A stretch of DNA of 64,000 bases from Thorsellia anophelis DSM 18579 (lineage in GTDB: Bacteria; Pseudomonadota; Gammaproteobacteria; Enterobacterales; Thorselliaceae): contig NZ_FOHV01000002.1 of NCBI RefSeq assembly GCF_900111395.1, forward strand, positions 59,675-123,674. Reading direction: 5' to 3'. The notes beneath the pieces are model-generated. The model searched no databases and had not been told where the DNA came from. It worked only from the letters and a program-made list of their open reading frames with translations. Position numbers and translations under genes: made by a program. Below, piece by piece: positions 2,284 to 59,903 of this stretch (position 1 is the stretch's first letter; each line of letters begins with the position of its first letter).

Positions 2284-3691
2284 AAATTTCAGGCAAAGTT
2301 CTAGTTTTTTTATGGCGACATTGTGTTCCATACTTCTACTTAGTGTTGCATGCTTTGTTTTTTATTTTATTTCTGTTGTCAATAGTGATGGTTTTTTAGC
2401 AGAATCACGCGCCGCAATAGATGCAGAAATGTCTCGCTTATTAATGTTAGATCAAATCGATAGCAACGCGTTAAAAAAAGCGCTAAGCATGCATAATGAT
2501 ACACCTCAAAATACGTTTATTTACGGTTTATTCTCTAAACAGAATGAAGTATTAATTGGGAATAAGGCATTTTGGTCACCATTTTTAAATGAGCTACAAC
2601 AAAATACTCCTACATTGACTCAATATCAAATCGCCCAAGGTGGTGGTGCTGATGACCTATCCTTTTTTCAACAACTTGAGAATTTAACTTTGGAAAGTAA
2701 TTATCTTTCTAAATCAGTTCAGGTAGAAGAAGGTAATTATTTGATTGTCGCTCGTAATATTGATGAATTCAGAACAGCCAGATGGTTTGCTATGACTTTT
2801 GGCTGGGTTATTTTTGTTATTACGCTCATGCTAATTTTATGTTTTTATATTATTGGGCAATTCGTCGTTAATAAAGTTAATTCTATCTCACGGATTGCCA
2901 ATGAAATTATCACTACAGGAAATATCAGTAAACGAATTGCCAGAGATAGATACTGGGATGATTTAAGTAAGCTTGAAATTGTCTTAAATACGATGCTTGA
3001 TGAAATTGAATCATTAATGCTAGGCATGAAAAAAGTAACGGATGATATTGCCCACGATCTCAGAACGCCACTTACCCGCTTAAGAAATGACTTAGAGCAA
3101 GTTGAGCCGGCTGAACTTAAAGAAGAGTTACTTAGTGAAGCTGATCGCTTATTAAGTATGTTTAATGGTTTACTTAGGATTGCAGAGGTTGAAAGCGGTA
3201 AAAAACGTGCAGAGTTTCAATTGGTTGATTTTGATGATATTGTTAGGGATGCTGAAGCACTATATGCCCCATTGTGTGATGAGAAAAATATCAGTATTAA
3301 CAGTGTGATAAAAACGGCTAAAGTTTATGGCGATCGTAATTTACTGTTTCAAATCTGTATTAATCTTATTGATAATGCAATTAAGTTCACGCCATCTGGA
3401 GGATTAATAGAAATTATGTTATCTGAGCAAGATGGGTGTACATTTTTATCGATTACTGATTCAGGCATAGGAATTGATGAATCTGAAATTAATCATATCT
3501 TTAAACGATTTTATCGAGTAGAGCGAAGCCGTAACAGTGAAGGTAATGGTCTTGGTTTATCGATTGTACAAGCGATTGTGCAATTACATAAAGGGCGGAT
3601 AACTGTTAAAAATAGGGCAGTAGGAACACGGTTTGAACTATTTTTCCCAAAAGATAAAAATATGACTTGTGCTGCTAATTTACCTAAATAG
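2252..3691 (+). CDS. Sensor histidine kinase (two TM segments, HAMP, HisKA, HATPase_c)
   Basis: H-box AHDLRTPLTRL. N-box and G-box motifs (IDNAIKFT, GLGLSIV). Two hydrophobic segments bracket a ~150-aa periplasmic region. Overlaps the response-regulator 3' end by 32 nt, indicating translational coupling. Confidence 0.8.
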   Translation: MSKVFMTSTIKNFRQSSSFFMATLCSILLLSVACFVFYFISVVNSDGFLAESRAAIDAEMSRLLMLDQIDSNALKKALSMHNDTPQNTFIYGLFSKQNEVLIGNKAFWSPFLNELQQNTPTLTQYQIAQGGGADDLSFFQQLENLTLESNYLSKSVQVEEGNYLIVARNIDEFRTARWFAMTFGWVIFVITLMLILCFYIIGQFVVNKVNSISRIANEIITTGNISKRIARDRYWDDLSKLEIVLNTMLDEIESLMLGMKKVTDDIAHDLRTPLTRLRNDLEQVEPAELKEELLSEADRLLSMFNGLLRIAEVESGKKRAEFQLVDFDDIVRDAEALYAPLCDEKNISINSVIKTAKVYGDRNLLFQICINLIDNAIKFTPSGGLIEIMLSEQDGCTFLSITDSGIGIDESEINHIFKRFYRVERSRNSEGNGLGLSIVQAIVQLHKGRITVKNRAVGTRFELFFPKDKNMTCAANLPK

Positions 3692-3879
3692 GGTAAAATA
3701 AGTTGAAAAAGCTAGTCTTAATATTCAAAATATGATATAAAGCGCGCCGCAAAAGCGCTCTTATTTATTGGTTATTTAACCTGGTTAATTAATCAAAAAT
3801 TAATTGCATTACGTTGCGACTATAACCGCTGGTATGTCTAGAGTTTTATTAAGCTCTGGGTTTACATGTGTAAATACAC

Positions 3880-4005
3880 ACATGCATCGACACAATAGCC
3901 GGGGTGCCATGATTTTATCAAGTTTATCTTAAATAAGATAAAAACTAGGTCGGTCTATTGGGATGTATGGAGGCAAAACCCCATTTATATGATTAGAGGT
4001 CTATT
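3880..4005 (+). promoter_or_regulatory. Candidate rpsB 5' leader (S2 autoregulatory leader region)
   Basis: ~120-nt GC-richer structured segment immediately upstream of rpsB. Gammaproteobacteria carry a conserved S2-binding leader at this position. Not verified by a covariance model. Confidence 0.3.
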
Positions 4006-30054: not shown

Positions 30055-31290
30055 TTAACCTTTTACACAAACAACTTGTCTTAGAGTATGCACTACTTCG
30101 ACAAGTGATTTTTGTGCAGCCATCACTGCATCAATATCTTTATAAGCCATTGGTATTTCATCAATCACTGCCTCGTCTTTTCTACATTCAACATGTGCTG
30201 TAGAGCGGATTTGATCTTCAACTGTGAAACGTTTTTTAGCAGCGGTACGACTCAACGTTCTTCCTGCACCATGACTACAAGAGCAAAAACTCTCTTCATT
30301 CCCTAATCCACGTACAATAAAACTTTTTGCCCCCATAGATCCAGGTATGATTCCAAGTTGTCCCTTTTGAGCTGACACTGCCCCTTTTCTGGTAATAAAG
30401 ACAGACTCACCGAAATGAGTTTCTTTTTGTACGTAATTATGATGGCAGTTTACCGCCATAAGATCGGTATAAAATGGTTTCTCAATTTGACTAGCCAAGG
30501 CTTTTAATGTGTTTTCCATCATAACTTCACGATTAGCAAGCGCAAATTCTTGTGCCCATTTAACGGCCTCAACATAATCATCAAAATGCTGGCTTCCTTC
30601 TTCAAAATATGCAAGATTTTTGTCTGGTAGGTTGCCAATATGAGCTTCCATATCTTTTTGAGCCATTTCAATAAATAGGCTACCAATTAAATTACCGACG
30701 CCACGTGAACCGCTATGTAGCATTACCCAAACCCTGTCTCTTTCATCTAAACAAAGTTCTATAAAGTGATTTCCTGTACCGAGTGTCCCTAAGTGTTTTT
30801 GATTATTAGAATTTTTAAGTCTAGGGTATTTGTCACATAATGCAGCAAATCCAGGTGCCAGTTTTGCCCATTGAAGATCTACGTTATGCGGAACATTATG
30901 CCAAGAACCTGTATCTCTTCTTCCTCTTTGCATCACTCTACCATGTGGTACCGTTTTCTCAATTGCAGAACGAATACCAAATAGATTATCTGGCAGATCA
31001 CTGGCTACAAGTGACGTACAGACAGCCATCATACCACATCCAATATCGACTCCAACGGCAGCCGGAATAATCGCTTTATAGGTTGGGATAACGCTTCCAA
31101 TTGTCGAACCTTTACCTACATGTACATCAGGCATAACGGCCAAATGTTTAAAAATAAAGGGTAGTGTAGCAGTATTAAATAGTTGTTTTTTAGCCTCTTC
31201 TTCAACGGGTACGCCATGGGTCCACATTTTAATTGGGTGGTGTTTATCTGAGCTAATTGTTTGGTATGATTCATTCATGATTATATTCAT
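30055..31290 (-). CDS. rtcB: RNA-splicing ligase RtcB
   Basis: Collinear with E. coli RtcB (KMWTHGVPVE, FIFKHLAVMPDVHVGKG, CHHNYV, GSMGAKSFIVRGLGNEESFCSCSHGAGR, C-terminal VVCVKG). Confidence 0.93.
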   Translation of the reverse strand: MNIIMNESYQTISSDKHHPIKMWTHGVPVEEEAKKQLFNTATLPFIFKHLAVMPDVHVGKGSTIGSVIPTYKAIIPAAVGVDIGCGMMAVCTSLVASDLPDNLFGIRSAIEKTVPHGRVMQRGRRDTGSWHNVPHNVDLQWAKLAPGFAALCDKYPRLKNSNNQKHLGTLGTGNHFIELCLDERDRVWVMLHSGSRGVGNLIGSLFIEMAQKDMEAHIGNLPDKNLAYFEEGSQHFDDYVEAVKWAQEFALANREVMMENTLKALASQIEKPFYTDLMAVNCHHNYVQKETHFGESVFITRKGAVSAQKGQLGIIPGSMGAKSFIVRGLGNEESFCSCSHGAGRTLSRTAAKKRFTVEDQIRSTAHVECRKDEAVIDEIPMAYKDIDAVMAAQKSLVEVVHTLRQVVCVKG

Positions 31291-31352
31291 TTTCTTATCT
31301 CTCATTTATTTTAAATTTGTTGTTTGCTATCTATTTTGGTTTATTTACTGGC

Positions 31353-32648
31353 CTATTTATTTTGGTTGAGGGTGACAAGTCCGTTTAATACACCGTCTAA
31401 ACCGCCATAAACACTCAATGTATCAATATGTTCAACAACTTTTTCTAGAGTTTCTAGTTCTTTTAACCTAAGTGCAATCGGATTATTTTCCATCACTTTA
31501 GCTGTATTCAGTAGTGAGCGTGTTGCTGATGTTTCTTCTCGGCGACGAATTACATTGGCTTGAGCTGCTTTTTCAGCCTCAACGACCTTGGCCAAAATCG
31601 CTTTAATTTCGCCAGGCAATATAATGTCTTTAACGCCTAATGAGGTGACTACAATCCCACTATTTTTTAGTACTTCAGAGAGCCTATCTATCACAATTTT
31701 ATTGATAATCTCTTTATCTTCCAATAATTCATCAAGTGTTCTTGTACCAATTGCTTCTCTAAGCGAAAATTGCAACTCTCTGTAAAGATAAGGTTTAATC
31801 TCACTCAGTTGTTCATGCGCTTTTAATACATCGATATATTGCCAGTTAGCAATTAAATTTATTCTTAAGGTGACTTTATCTTTGGTTAATATTTCTTGGC
31901 CATTGACTTCTAATCCTGTGATACGTGTATCAATGATTTCCAAATCAATCGTGCGGTTAACTGCCCAATATGCATGATTGCCCGCTGCTAAAAGAGGCAT
32001 TATTTTGCCATCTACTTTCAATATACCAACATGATATGCAGGGATATTAGCCATTAAAACATGAGATGTCCCAACGATTTTTTTTGCCCTTGCATTAGGG
32101 CGTAAAAGTTGACGTTTGATCGATTCATCTACTTCAATCGCCTCTTCAACGCAATACGTTTTAAGTGTTTGGGTTGTTGGACCTAACCAATATAAACGTT
32201 TCGTCGCTGGTGGTAAGATTTCAATTAAGATCCCATTTTCATAGCGTAAACCGATTTCATTTTCATTTGTATTGATTTCAGTACAATACTTAGCAATGAC
32301 CTCTGGTAAATAAGCATACAAATGATTTGCTAATTTCTCATCAATCAAAGGAGCAGCAAGATCAACAAAAACTACGTTAAGCTCATTATCTGAATCTTTA
32401 AATTGAAATTCACCTTGAGCGTACACATTCTCTAAAAGCTGATTGCGGTATAGCAGAGCTAATTGATTAGGTTGAACTGTTAGTTTTTTTCTGCCAAACC
32501 ATTGCTGCGTAAATTGAGTTTGTTTATCGTGTTGTTGTTCTGTTTTAATCATTATTTTATCTCTTATTATATTTCTTATTGAAATCACTGCGTAGCGTGT
32601 AGCGAGGTGTAGAATAAAATCAGTCAATTTTTTACGGTCTTTTGTCAT
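31353..32648 (-). CDS. SPFH/band-7 (slipin/stomatin-like) domain protein with ~200-aa uncharacterised N-terminal region
   Basis: C-terminal half shows SPFH features (TKDKVTLRINLIANWQ; GTRTLDELLEDKEIINKIVIDRLSEVLKNSGIVVTSLGVKDIILPGEIKAILAKVVEAEKAAQANVIRRREE). The N-terminal 200 aa has no family I recognise. No obvious SD at the first ATG; an alternative start is at 32552. Confidence 0.6.
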   Translation of the reverse strand: MTKDRKKLTDFILHLATRYAVISIRNIIRDKIMIKTEQQHDKQTQFTQQWFGRKKLTVQPNQLALLYRNQLLENVYAQGEFQFKDSDNELNVVFVDLAAPLIDEKLANHLYAYLPEVIAKYCTEINTNENEIGLRYENGILIEILPPATKRLYWLGPTTQTLKTYCVEEAIEVDESIKRQLLRPNARAKKIVGTSHVLMANIPAYHVGILKVDGKIMPLLAAGNHAYWAVNRTIDLEIIDTRITGLEVNGQEILTKDKVTLRINLIANWQYIDVLKAHEQLSEIKPYLYRELQFSLREAIGTRTLDELLEDKEIINKIVIDRLSEVLKNSGIVVTSLGVKDIILPGEIKAILAKVVEAEKAAQANVIRRREETSATRSLLNTAKVMENNPIALRLKELETLEKVVEHIDTLSVYGGLDGVLNGLVTLNQNK

Positions 32649-32668
32649 TAAAAGCTGATTTTATTTAC

Positions 32669-32727
32669 TCACATTAAGTCGTTTTTCCTCTTATCTAACT
32701 TAAGATCTAGATTAGATAAGATAAGAG
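32669..32727 (-). promoter_or_regulatory. 5'-UTR hairpin sequestering a strong SD plus ATG-TGA start-stop element upstream of the SPFH gene
   Basis: On the minus-strand RNA, CUCUUAUCU ... AGAUAAGAG forms a 9-bp stem with a palindromic interior (AUCUAGAU) whose 3' arm supplies the AAGAGGA. This is followed 10 nt later by AUG UGA. Confidence 0.35.
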
Positions 32728-32729
32728 GG

Positions 32730-32960
32730 GGTATTGGCGATACCTCGTACAGTCTGTCTCGCCTTAACCTTCGAGTTAATGCCCAGTTACTAGCCAGGCA
32801 GTGATTGTCAGCAGTAAACCTTCTACTGCAATGTTGTTTTAAAGTTGAAGGAGTCGAACCTTCCCAGCGTTAGCCTTACCATAATTGCAAGAGAGAATCA
32901 GTTAGTTCTCTTGATTGCATCTGTGTCTTAGTCTTATCTAACCCGCTAGTATTAGAGGGA
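32730..32960 (-). ncRNA. Candidate structured leader RNA with tRNA-like T-arm (possible Y-RNA/YrlA-like element)
   Basis: Lies between the sigma54 promoter and the SPFH start. Minus-strand RNA contains GGAAG-GUUCGACU-CCUUC (a T-arm-like GGUUCGAnUCC). Several further perfect hairpins are present (AGAGAA/UUCUCU, GCAGUA/UACUGC, GGCGA/UCGCC). No ORF of 60 aa or more occurs in the region. Confidence 0.35.
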
Positions 32961-33076
32961 GACGGTGGAGTATTAACGATAGTGATAAAATTATGACTAA
33001 ATCGGTAACCTCAATCCAACCTAGACCTAAAGAAAGTGTAATTATTCTGTTAGGTGACGATGACATGAAAAATAAA

Positions 33077-33091
33077 GCAATCAATGTGCCA
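33077..33091 (-). promoter_or_regulatory. Sigma54 (-24/-12) promoter driving the SPFH-rtcB operon
   Basis: Minus strand reads TGGCAC-ATTGA-TTGCT, a near-consensus TGGCAC-N5-TTGCW. Upstream (33092-33317) is A-tract-rich and bend-prone DNA before the divergent rtcR gene, as expected for an enhancer-binding-protein-dependent promoter. Confidence 0.6.
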
Positions 33092-33317
33092 ACTTTTTAA
33101 ATGACATGACTAATTTTATTTAAGTTATTGTTTTTAAGTTTTTTAATGTTTTAATTTTTATTTTTAATCTTTATTTGAAGGGGAAGTCATCATGGTAAGT
33201 ATCTATAGAACTTTGTTATATTTTTTTTATTTTTATATAAAATTATAATAATTTATATTATTATCTATTTAAGGGTGAGTAAATTTTTTGTTCGATTGAT
33301 CTAGTAGGTGGAGTAAC

Positions 33318-35051
33318 ATGATAAATAGCATCGAAACAGGATTAAAAAATGTCGTGATTGGCACAGTAGGCACGATTTTAGATAAACGTGGCAATAAGCA
33401 TAATCGATGGCGCAGTTGGCGGCCCTCATTAGGTGCCTGCTTGCAAACAAACTTACCAATTCATCGATTTGAGTTACTGTATCAAGAAAATCACAAACAC
33501 ATTGCTTTGCAACTACAGCAAGATATAACCATCGCGGCGCCGCAAACAGAGGTCTACCTGCATTGTGTTCCGATTAGCGATCCTTGGGATTTTCAAGAAA
33601 CCTATACGCAGTTATATGAATTTTCAAAGTTATATCAATTTGATAGGGAAAAAGAAAATTATTATGTGCATATCACAACAGGCACACATGTGATGCAAAT
33701 ATGCTGGTTTTTACTGACAGAGGCCCATTATTTTCCTGCAAAGTTACTACAAACGTCACCGCCAAAAAAAGAGCGAGAATCTCAAAAACAAACATCAGTT
33801 GAGAAAAATATTGAGCAAGATGAGGCTCATATAGACATAAAATATAAGGAAAATGAACATTCTATTGATATCAAGCCAGTTGCAGGGACTTACTCAATTA
33901 TTGATTTAGATTTAAGTCGTTATGATGAAATTGCTAAGCGTCATGCCTCCGAGAAAGATAATCATTATGAGCAACTTAAATCTGGTATTGCTACGCTTAA
34001 TTCTAATTATAACCATATGATTACAGAGATAGAGAAAGTCGCAACGCTCTCTAAGTCTCCCATTTTGCTGAATGGTCCTACAGGATCGGGTAAATCTTTT
34101 TTGGCAAAGCGTATTTATGATTTAAAACGAAGTAAACACCAATTAGTGGGTGATTTTGTAGAAGTTAACTGCGCGACTCTACGAGGAGATGCGGCAATGT
34201 CTGCACTTTTTGGTCATACTAAGGGTGCTTACACAGGCGCACTCTCAGATAGACCTGGTTTGTTAAAAAGGGCAAATGGTGGCTTATTATTTTTAGATGA
34301 AATCGGGGAGCTAGGGCTTGATGAACAAGCGATGTTGCTAAAAGCGATAGAAGAAAAGGTATTTTATCCGCTTGGAAGCGATAAAGAAATATCCTCAGAT
34401 TTTCAACTTATTGCAGGGACTCATCGAGATTTAAGGCAATGGGTCAGGGCAGGAAAATTTAGAGAGGATTTATATGCTAGAATTAATCTTTGGGCATATG
34501 AATTGCCTTCACTTGCTAACAGGCCAGAAGATATTGCACCAAACATTACTTATGAATTGAATCAATTCGCATTTTTAAATCAGCAGCAAGTTGCTTTTAG
34601 TACGGAAGCAAAACAAAAATATTTATCGTTTGCGACCTCGAAACATGCGAAGTGGTCTGGCAATTTTCGAGAATTGAGTGCGAGCATTACCCGCCTTGCG
34701 ACATTATCTTCTGGTGGGCGAATTGATGCCTCACTTGTTGATGAAGAAATCAAGCGTTTAGAGTACGCATGGGGGCTTAAGTTAAAGGATTCAGATAGGT
34801 TGGAAACCGTACCAATAGAAAAAGAACTCGAGTTTTCAGATTTGATAGATTTAAATGGATTAGATTTATTTGATAAACAACAATTGTTGACTGTGTTAGA
34901 GGTATGTAAATCTAGCAAAAATCTTTCAGAAGCAGGAAGGAAATTATTTTCTGTTTCTAGAACTGAAAAAAAATCACCTAATGATGCTGATAGACTGCGG
35001 AAATATTTAGCTAAATTTGGTCTTTCATGGGAATTAATTCACTCCTACTGA
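33318..35051 (+). CDS. rtcR: Sigma54-dependent transcriptional regulator RtcR (CARF sensor, AAA+, HTH)
   Basis: N-terminal domain aligns to the E. coli RtcR CARF region (GTVGTILDKRGNKHNRWRSWRPSLGACLQ versus GFVGTVLD..RWSKWRPTL; HITTGTHVMQICWFLL). AAA+ motifs GPTGSGKS, GGLLFLDEIGEL, GAFTGA-like GAYTGA. Has a ~45-aa insert in the linker relative to E. coli. Confidence 0.88.
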   Translation: MINSIETGLKNVVIGTVGTILDKRGNKHNRWRSWRPSLGACLQTNLPIHRFELLYQENHKHIALQLQQDITIAAPQTEVYLHCVPISDPWDFQETYTQLYEFSKLYQFDREKENYYVHITTGTHVMQICWFLLTEAHYFPAKLLQTSPPKKERESQKQTSVEKNIEQDEAHIDIKYKENEHSIDIKPVAGTYSIIDLDLSRYDEIAKRHASEKDNHYEQLKSGIATLNSNYNHMITEIEKVATLSKSPILLNGPTGSGKSFLAKRIYDLKRSKHQLVGDFVEVNCATLRGDAAMSALFGHTKGAYTGALSDRPGLLKRANGGLLFLDEIGELGLDEQAMLLKAIEEKVFYPLGSDKEISSDFQLIAGTHRDLRQWVRAGKFREDLYARINLWAYELPSLANRPEDIAPNITYELNQFAFLNQQQVAFSTEAKQKYLSFATSKHAKWSGNFRELSASITRLATLSSGGRIDASLVDEEIKRLEYAWGLKLKDSDRLETVPIEKELEFSDLIDLNGLDLFDKQQLLTVLEVCKSSKNLSEAGRKLFSVSRTEKKSPNDADRLRKYLAKFGLSWELIHSY

Positions 35052-59492: not shown

Positions 59493-59903
59493 TTCTCCTT
59501 AATACAGTTTATTAACCTATCTCAGATATTCTCATATTGAGATGACAGTTAAATGACCGAATATACAATTAAACTAGCATAAACGGTATTAGGTTAACCT
59601 TAACAAACACAGACTTAAAAAAAAATCACTTAATTAACTAACAAAAATAGTTAGCTAGTTTTTTTTGAAATGTTTAAGTTTGATTTTTTTTGGTGTAAGT
59701 AGCTTATTGTAAATGAAAAAATAAATATAGTGTTGGTTAAGAGAGTATTAAATACTGATCTTCAAGGGGATAAAAAATGATGCTTTTTTTATGATGAAAG
59801 TGTTTTTTTTTCTCTTTATTTATGCCTTTTTACGAATCATAATCATGTTAAAAAGGCATAGATTAAAAGAGGTAGAAGAGTGAAAACAAATCACTACAAG
59901 AGG

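Follow-up and report, generated by a model that had tools for sequence, protein, structure and literature searches.

The slipin-rtcB operon of Thorsellia anophelis DSM 18579, a set of RNA-repair genes, raises the question of what a stretch resembling transfer RNA (tRNA) is doing in its untranslated leader. The stretch lies at positions 32730-32960, read on the minus strand, of the window, by which is meant the whole 64-kb (64,000-nucleotide) piece of contig NZ_FOHV01000002.1 that was analyzed (assembly GCF_900111395.1, contig positions 59,675 to 123,674). A first-pass annotation had proposed a tRNA-like, Y-RNA-like structured RNA here. The tRNA-like RNA module flagged there is genuine and conserved, and it is not a new class: it is a reduced form of a Band-7-associated tRNA class that, in the account given by a citing preprint, has been predicted and is unvalidated. 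The 'tRNA-like' part of the first-pass annotation is thus right and its 'Y RNA' part is not supported; the annotation mentioned neither that the element belongs to the predicted Band-7-associated class nor that relatives carry full tRNA-like units. The central block contains the following parts:

32847-32863, minus strand: T-arm GAAGG-UUCGACU-CCUUC, a 5-bp stem with a 7-nt loop that matches the tRNA T-loop consensus and includes the G53-C61 pair
32866-32875, minus strand: mini-hairpin GGC-uaac-GCU of 3 bp, just 5' of the T-arm
32876-32883, minus strand: linker UAUGGUAA with a conserved GG, resembling a D-loop
32833-32846, minus strand: A-rich spacer AACUUUAAAACAAC after the T-arm, in the place taken in other taxa by the acceptor 3' strand and NCCA

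The T-arm carries the argument that an RNA has been selected here. Its motif, GGTTCRANTCC, occurs once in the window, against 0.11 occurrences expected by chance. In a scan of slipin loci from gamma- and beta-proteobacteria, in which each species was represented by one genome (80 loci), 78 loci have the motif on the coding strand, between 200 and 450 nt upstream of the match to the slipin gene (L021 and L024 lack it), and approximately 48 loci carry two copies spaced 70-75 nt apart. When 103 distinct T-arms were aligned, the five stem positions showed standard pairing in 96.5% of cells, and both sides had changed in 92 cells; none of 500 shuffles reached these values. The three outer pairs each occur as 5-6 pair types, and sliding the 3' partner abolishes the covariation signal. 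Therefore, the T-arm is a selected RNA helix rather than a DNA site or a chance match. Covariation among homologous loci, which the first-pass annotation had named as a check, is in this way found over 103 copies, and its proposal of a conserved tRNA-like structured element in a sigma-54-driven leader upstream of an SPFH/slipin gene is borne out. Thermodynamics alone is a weak guide (folding energy z = -2.06 for 261 nt and -1.41 for 431 nt). In consensus folding with RNAalifold, the T-arm is the sole consensus structure of a mixed Thorsellia and Morganellaceae alignment, and the mini-hairpin is kept besides the T-arm when the three Thorsellia-type sequences are folded.

These Thorsellia-type sequences are the window and two metagenome-assembled contigs, L001 (with the nearly identical L002) and L003, whose slipins are 83% and 62% identical to that of the window, respectively; a protein search gave only these two close relatives, and a metagenome scan for further Thorsellia-type copies with the pattern AAGGCTNNNGCNGNNAAGGTTCGANTCCTT returned 0 matches. 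Identity over the block at 32890-32845 is 98% with L001 and 65% with L003, where the leader as a whole averages 68% and 37%, respectively; promoter aside, this block is the conservation peak of the leader alignment. In particular, four features are present in all three sequences: UGGUAA (32881-32876 in the window), the 3-bp mini-hairpin, the T-arm and the A-rich spacer, which measures 13 nt in L001 and 9 nt in L003. The G-U pair of the mini-hairpin is replaced by G-C in both L001 and L003. UGGUAA is also conserved in Providencia, where the layout closest to the Thorsellia unit is found (UGGUAA-UAGC-cua-GCUA, the T-arm and then AACUUA). Mini-hairpins abutting the T-arm occur in other taxa as well, in the forms CCC-gcaa-GGG, CCUC-gcaa-GAGG, CACC-gcga-GGUG and UAGC-cua-GCUA.

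The block is embedded in an operon that is read from the minus strand in the order sigma-54 promoter, leader, slipin (Band-7) gene and rtcB, and whose promoter is divergent from rtcR:

33076-33091, minus strand: sigma-54 promoter TGGCAC-N5-TTGCT (TGGCACATTGATTGCT), divergent from rtcR
32553-33065, minus strand: slipin-rtcB leader of approx. 510 nt, with the slipin start codon taken as 32552
31353-32552, minus strand: slipin (SPFH/Band-7) gene, Pfam Band_7
30055-31305, minus strand: rtcB RNA ligase gene, last in the operon, Pfam RtcB with E = 6e-129
33318-35051, plus strand: rtcR, a sigma-54 activator with an RtcR/CARF N-terminal domain, Pfam RtcR and Sigma54_activat

The promoter is the sole match to the exact sigma-54 consensus within the window; it is also kept in L001 and L003, the two closest relatives, and Enterobacterales loci have TGGCAC-N5-TGGCA at the equivalent position. 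From the position of the promoter, transcription would start near 33065 on the minus strand. The leader is taken to be about 510 nt long because the closest homologues of the slipin, P0002 and P0003, begin at the ATG equivalent to 32552. No terminator-like site was found on the minus strand of the leader. The gene order slipin-rtcB is common to the window, L001, L003, L084, L086 and L087. In line with the first-pass annotation's remark that there is no Rsr to bind the element, no TROVE/Rsr gene was found among the operon, its neighbours and the eight large open reading frames (ORFs) of the window that were scanned. Likewise, rtcA was not found in the ORFs scanned or beside rtcB, where the next ORF is erpA-like and lies on the other strand.

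What the Thorsellia block is a reduced form of becomes apparent from the leaders of relatives. Those of Pseudomonas, Undibacterium, Dechloromonas, Ralstonia, Roseateles and Acidovorax contain units that score 36-60 bits with the Rfam tRNA model, for which the threshold is 29 (relatives passing the model include L005, L043, L042, L065, L038, L027 and L053), and several of the relatives' units are called as tRNAs by ARAGORN, although their anticodon loops are odd. In the gene-proximal unit, the spacing is that of a canonical cloverleaf, and the D-arm (GCUC-AG..GGUAG-AGC) and T-arm are conserved; GGUAGAGC occupies the D-loop of these canonical units. Their anticodon arm is variable, and in many Pseudomonas and Burkholderia units it is capped by a UUCG or GNRA tetraloop. 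That the D-arm and T-arm are retained while the anticodon arm varies or is capped suggests that selection acts on the elbow and top half. Units capped by a tetraloop (for example, L007 at 2776, L038 at 2712, L017 at 2716 and L030 at 2715) are tRNA mimics without an anticodon.

The distal unit usually takes another form, an acceptor/T-arm minihelix, in which a 5-8-nt acceptor 5' strand is followed by a 10-30-nt linker containing (U)GG(U), the T-arm and the acceptor 3' strand. The linker often includes a mini-hairpin abutting the T-arm, and in many beta-proteobacteria NCCA is encoded after the acceptor. An acceptor stem of at least 6 bp is present in 73% of distal units, compared with 16% of shuffles. 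Beta-proteobacterial examples of the distal minihelix are found at L042 2616-2666, L033 2610-2663, L053 2560-2622 and L056 2556-2619; the mini-hairpin is often tetraloop-capped there, NCCA follows the acceptor stem directly, and the minihelix abuts a second, cloverleaf unit. The Thorsellia unit has the layout of this distal minihelix, namely a GG-containing linker, a mini-hairpin and the T-arm. Enterobacterales carry a single unit of varied form, which is a minihelix in Erwinia, takes other forms in Proteus and Providencia, and in Klebsiella, Citrobacter and E. coli consists of the T-arm and, after it, a closed hairpin. A clean cloverleaf is found in Gilliamella, where A-CCA is encoded, and in Snodgrassella and Entomomonas. 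In Xenorhabdus hominickii (L086, approx. 1300-1340), the T-arm consensus is degenerate (UAGGGUUCUAUCGGAUA), and the slipin, rtcB and sigma-54 promoter are intact.

The rest of the flagged stretch and of the leader holds further helices and pairing strands:

32892-32911, minus strand: 'V' hairpin AGAGAA-cuaacuga-UUCUCU, present in minimum-free-energy folds
32884-32890, minus strand: UUGCAAU, candidate 5' strand of an acceptor-like stem, with AUUGCAG at 32832-32826 as its partner
32811-32829, minus strand: hairpin GCAGUA-gaagguu-UACUGC, or alternatively a 4-bp stem with a GG-containing loop, D-arm-like
32781-32799, minus strand: GCCUGG hairpin, anticodon-arm-like, broken in L001
32736-32763, minus strand: hairpin GGCGA-N18-UCGCC, in minimum-free-energy folds
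32687-32728, minus strand: 3' hairpin CCUCUUAUCU...AGAUAAGAGG, in folds; L001 has a hairpin of different sequence there

The elements that the first-pass annotation listed on the minus strand, that is, the T-arm, the AGAGAA, GCAGUA and GGCGA hairpins and the UGCAAU/AUUGCA pairing, are all present where it placed them, except that the loop of the GCAGUA hairpin (32829-32811) has 7 nt and not 8. Of the multi-helix domain that it built from them, the T-arm is firm, the flanking hairpins are less secure, and closure by UGCAAU/AUUGCA is not significant. The V hairpin can be extended by pairing UGCAA (32919-32915) with UUGCA (32890-32886); L001 retains the hairpin with one compensatory pair and one mismatch, and L003 has a shorter, different hairpin instead. 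UGCAAU occurs twice on the minus strand, at 32919-32914 and within UUGCAAU at 32890-32884, and both copies are candidate partners for the AUUGCA(G) at 32832-32826. The best stem around the T-arm has 7 bp in the window and 8 bp in L001, and in L003 other sequences (CAUGGUU/AACUAUG) can pair in a similar geometry. Shuffles of each Thorsellia-type sequence reach 7 bp or more in 23% of cases, and the closing stem is not significant alone. The acceptor-like closure by UUGCAAU/AUUGCAG, read from these possible base pairs, is suggestive only.

Other closures were considered and set aside. A cloverleaf closed by the upstream UGCAAU (32919-32914) and AUUGCA is unsupported, as the loop of the arm in the D position lacks a GG and the linkers are excessively long; an abutting acceptor stem formed by UAAGG/CUUUA is conserved in neither L001 nor L003; and the long closing stem of the window fold, which is not reproduced in L001 or L003, was not relied on. 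The long-range pairs of full-leader minimum-free-energy folds disagree among the three sequences. Downstream of the T-arm, the GCAGUA hairpin is identical in L001 except for its loop (GUUGGUU), L003 has AACU-auggaaa-AGUU at the equivalent place, and Morganellaceae have a hairpin 4-13 nt after the T-arm. The 5' strand of the GGCGA hairpin, AAGGCGAGA, matches the conserved AGGCAGAA motif of other Enterobacterales leaders when compared by eye, and L001 has a hairpin at this position with its register shifted. The downstream sequence may be a decayed second unit, of which the hairpins at 32829-32811 and 32799-32781 and a half T-arm, GAAGGUU (32772-32766), would be left. On the plus strand, the hairpin at 32811-32829 followed by AATGTTGTTT has a terminator-like score; no plus-strand gene ends there, and the site is probably incidental. 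The sequence GUUAGAUAAGA(G) occurs twice on the minus strand (32944-32932 and 32699-32687), and both copies, as well as AUAAGAG, are complementary to CUCUUAUCUUAUCUAA (32727-32712). The pairings with CUCUUAUCUUAUCUAA are mutually exclusive and could mask the ribosome-binding site; they are only partly conserved in L001.

Adjoining genes for RtcB, a Band-7 protein and a predicted tRNA-resembling non-coding RNA, the b7a-tRNA, have been described in some bacteria (Wang et al. 2018, bioRxiv 10.1101/312249). That preprint traces the prediction of the class to Burroughs & Aravind (Nucleic Acids Res 2016, as cited in bioRxiv 10.1101/312249). The window element is like the b7a-tRNA in being a non-coding tRNA-like element adjoining a Band-7/slipin gene and rtcB; its T-arm lies at the same place upstream of slipin as in the units of the other slipin loci, and neither RNA is a decoding tRNA. 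Unlike the b7a-tRNA, which in the wording of the citing preprint 'strongly resembles an authentic tRNA', the window unit is undetected by tRNA models and has no D-stem, anticodon arm, abutting 7-bp acceptor stem or CCA. The T-arm is the only canonical tRNA feature of the window, in which there is no cloverleaf. Compared with the distal minihelix, the window, L001 and L003 have the GG linker and the optional mini-hairpin before the T-arm. Two traits of the minihelix are missing from the window unit: an acceptor stem (5-8 bp) set 0-2 nt from the 3' side of the T-arm, and the encoded NCCA common in beta-proteobacteria. In the window, CCA follows neither the T-arm nor the candidate stem, and L001 and L003 encode no CCA either.

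A comparable reduction is known from transfer-messenger RNA (tmRNA), whose tRNA-like domain combines an acceptor stem with a T-arm, lacks an anticodon arm and retains only a GG-containing loop of the D-arm. The relatives' distal minihelix units are built in the same way, as is, loosely, the window unit; the analogy is architectural only, and homology is not claimed. The window unit differs from tmRNA by the absence of an mRNA-like domain, CCA and the G-U alanine identity pair. It is reported that tmRNA is a frequent RtcB substrate in E. coli (PMC9650030); no link between this and the window element was found.

On the basis of these comparisons, the reading that we favor, and hold to be reasonably probable, is that the element is the Thorsellia version of the slipin-RtcB tRNA-like RNA (the b7a-tRNA class) and functions as an elbow mimic and a cofactor of the slipin/RtcB machinery. 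It draws on the observed anatomy, conservation, position and motif homology with the relatives' tRNA-like units. The element is in fixed association with slipin, with rtcB beside slipin in the loci whose genes were examined, and the aligned units retain the T-arm and a GG-containing loop or D-arm, whereas anticodon arms and acceptor ends vary or vanish. By analogy, its role is most likely that of a tRNA-elbow mimic made together with slipin and RtcB as their RNA cofactor. Upon RNA damage, transcription from the RtcR-dependent sigma-54 promoter would yield the element within the 5' leader, and the element would therefore be made only when the repair operon is induced. The unit would fold as a tRNA 'elbow' out of the T-arm, the GG-containing D-loop-like linker and the mini-hairpin, possibly closed by a weak acceptor-like stem. 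Once released from the leader, the tRNA-shape mimic would bind the slipin/RtcB machinery with which it is expressed, or else an elbow-reading factor, and would serve as an RNA cofactor or scaffold of that machinery, as has been proposed for YrlA with Rsr. Burroughs and Aravind are said to have proposed, in 2016, that Band-7 and TROVE proteins are scaffolds with cognate non-coding RNAs. The Thorsellia unit cannot decode and has no CCA end.

The tRNA-like RNAs encoded beside RtcB, YrlA in the case of Rsr and b7a-tRNA in that of Band-7 proteins, are regarded as likely cofactors in bacterial RNA repair. A variant as reduced as that of Thorsellia suggests that the selected part is the T-arm and the GG linker rather than the acceptor end or the anticodon arm, and it narrows the search for a partner to factors that read the tRNA elbow. 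Moreover, the family occurs in approximately 30% of the complete genomes of E. coli, is absent from Rfam and forms part of a larger structured leader, which makes the class easily testable in a model organism.

Several results weigh against the favored reading. ARAGORN finds no tRNA genes in the window, and comparison with the Y RNA and tRNA models of Rfam, which the first-pass annotation had suggested, gave no tRNA and no Y-RNA match over 32500-33200 even at E<=10. Two minihelix covariance models built for this analysis, R1 and R2, recover the beta-proteobacterial units and some Enterobacterales units; in the window, they align to the T-loop core only (R2: 11.7 bits, E = 8.9). The acceptor-like stem is 14 nt away from the T-arm (9-14 nt across the Thorsellia-type sequences) and overlaps or competes with the GCAGUA hairpin. 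The Thorsellia-type sequences are three in number, two of them close to each other, and their helices besides the T-arm are without statistical support. The b7a-tRNA class itself is described in the citing preprint as possibly redundant with YrlA and experimentally unvalidated as of 2018 (bioRxiv 10.1101/312249), and full-text literature searches found no later validation; a paper on rtcB of P. aeruginosa makes no mention of a slipin-associated RNA. Finally, the release, stability and slipin/RtcB binding of the RNA are predicted properties only.

Most of the remaining weight falls on a function in cis, in which the whole leader of approximately 510 nt would be a riboregulator that controls translation or stability of the slipin-rtcB mRNA, with the tRNA-like module as a sensor of, for example, an elbow-binding protein, RtcB or slipin. 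Such a role is possible, though on the unlikely side. The element is located in a 5' untranslated region, and its excision by an RNase P-type mechanism is doubtful because it has neither CCA nor an abutting acceptor stem. The homologous Enterobacteriaceae leaders are structured along their whole length: in the RNAalifold consensus of this leader of approx. 300 nt (L006, L032, L034, L044, L047, L059, L060, L063, L079, L081, L050 and L039, approx. 2650-3000), compensatory changes are found in 27 of 49 pairs. Moreover, a conserved C-rich motif, UUCCCCU (CCCCCUCUUAU in the window), is located near the 3' end of the leader, close to the Shine-Dalgarno sequence; CUCUUAU (32727-32721) is complementary to AUAAGAG in the Shine-Dalgarno region (32567-32561) as well as to the 5' repeat (32944-32932); and mutually exclusive pairings around the T-arm occur in both lineages. 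However, the alternative pairings are not clearly conserved among the window, L001 and L003, the leader has no terminator or attenuator, and relatives carry units that, with their 7-bp acceptor stems and encoded NCCA, have the look of small RNAs that can be excised. The cis role and the trans cofactor role are not mutually exclusive. A variant that we regard as rather improbable takes the T-loop/GG elbow to be the minimal selected core of a structured cis-acting leader of approximately 500 nt; an elbow-reading partner, for which slipin, RtcB or a tRNA-handling enzyme is a candidate, would bind the leader while it is being transcribed and thereby control the expression or assembly of a vault-like particle of slipin and RtcB. 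If true, this would be a new kind of tRNA-elbow riboregulator and not a free tRNA-like cofactor.

The other explanations fare less well. The suggestion that the tRNA-like leader is a feed-forward inducer, which stress nucleases would cut into 2',3'-cyclic-phosphate fragments that bind the CARF domain of RtcR, or else a decoy for tRNA-targeting toxins, builds on the finding that RtcR is activated by tRNA fragments with cyclic phosphate ends (PMC7790460, PMC10159003). It is very unlikely here: the window unit has no anticodon arm, and many relatives replace the anticodon loop, the usual nuclease target, with UUCG or GNRA tetraloops, which makes cleavage in this loop less likely; in addition, YrlA was reported uncleaved in Salmonella, and the RNA is made only once RtcR is already active. 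The idea of the first-pass annotation that the RNA could present a 2',3'-cyclic phosphate end to RtcB or RtcR is likewise made less likely by the tetraloop-capped anticodon arms and by the resistance to cleavage reported for YrlA. A YrlA-type Y RNA, that is, a permuted tRNA-like module with a long closing stem, is highly improbable. YrlA is defined by linkage to Rsr, a 5' GNCGAAN0-1G motif, near-invariant D and T stems and a closing 5'/3' stem (PMC4201824), and its helices follow in the order V, T, closed acceptor hairpin and D-arm (Chen et al. 2014, PMC4201824). Like YrlA, the window element is a tRNA-like module with a T-arm in an RtcR/sigma-54-controlled RNA-repair operon that includes rtcB (PMC7790460), and the role proposed for it, cofactor of a scaffold protein, is the same. 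It also has a V hairpin before the T-arm and a GG-loop hairpin downstream, the minimum-free-energy fold closes the domain with a long stem of GGGUUAGAUAAGA with UCUUAUCUAAUC, and YrlA has occasionally been reported beside Band-7 genes, as stated in bioRxiv 10.1101/312249. However, YrlA binds Rsr via its 5' motif, whereas a regular-expression search found no GNCGAAN0-1G in the leaders of the window, L001 and L003, and the scanned ORFs include no Rsr/TROVE gene. The T-arm is followed by a 17-nt A-rich single strand rather than a closed acceptor hairpin, no conserved D-arm was found, and neither L001 nor L003 has the long closing stem. The Rfam search, run without a YrlA sequence as positive control and on a release (Rfam 15) that may lack a YrlA model, gave no Y-RNA family at E<=10. 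Nor do Y RNAs occupy 'exactly this position' in Salmonella, as the first-pass annotation had it: they are located between rsr and rtcB, in the operon rsr-yrlBA-rtcBA, and not in a 5' leader (PMC7790460). The least probable of the explanations is an element without present function, either the decaying remnant of a tRNA-like unit or a T-arm look-alike that arose by chance. The loss of the cloverleaf, CCA and acceptor geometry, the resemblance of the downstream sequence to a decayed second unit and the absence of the T-arm consensus in Xenorhabdus hominickii would fit a relic; nevertheless, the block is the most conserved part of the leader although the slipins are only 62-83% identical, and the expected chance number of the motif in the window (0.11) argues against a look-alike.

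In the leader of Enterobacteriaceae, the consensus runs from a 5' domain through the T-arm and a hairpin to a long 3' domain with conserved AGGCA(A/G)AA and UUCCCCU. No Rfam family covers it, and Rfam searches of Klebsiella and E. coli leaders returned nothing. A homologous leader and slipin are present in 1632 of 5426 complete E. coli genomes (approx. 30%). In E. coli IAI39, the leader (L088 3789-4316; NC_011750.1, about 4622738-4623265) combines the promoter TGGCAC-N5-TCGCA with the T-arm AUGGGUUCGAUUCCCGA and a closed hairpin, AUUCAUU-ccug-AAAUGAAU. It is flanked by yjbD and by a slipin-nucleotidyltransferase pair, and neither rtcR nor rtcB adjoins it; the RefSeq record annotates nothing in this leader, and there is no Rfam match.

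In the window, the operon is flanked by erpA-like, rplS, trmD, rimM and rpsP genes on one side and by Fic and Zip genes on the other. The genes adjoining rtcB differ among relatives: a gene of the Cas_NE0113 family is found in L003 (3424-4563), and an RlaP-type nucleotidyltransferase is found beside rtcB in L084 (4371-4530) and L086 (4334-4566). At gathering thresholds, Rfam gives nothing relevant to the leader in the whole window, where the t44 RNA (RF00127, 67 bits) at 3860-3979 on the plus strand is the only family matched.

The slipin product is 100% identical to the slipin family protein of Thorsellia anophelis in the public record (32648-31353). That record begins at 32648 and has 431 amino acids, whereas the closest homologues begin at the equivalent of 32552 and have 398; distant homologues align only from about residue 52 of the 431-residue form. 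The annotated N-terminal 32 residues are probably leader sequence. The possibility that the leader is a remnant of longer slipins of 520 amino acids was rejected, since their extra length is an internal duplication and not an N-terminal extension. In the predicted slipin structure (mean predicted local distance difference test score, pLDDT, of 73), residues 50-190 form two beta-rich repeats with a pLDDT of 80-91, which are followed by the SPFH domain and then a long helix. The model aligns with the major vault protein over approximately 410-425 columns (Foldseek E 4e-9 to 1e-6), whereas stomatin, HflK/C and prohibitin align only to its C-terminal half, the SPFH domain plus helix, over approximately 225 columns. 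The predicted model suggests that the slipin has a vault-like repeat/shoulder/helix architecture and that it is a protein of this kind that adjoins the small structured RNA.

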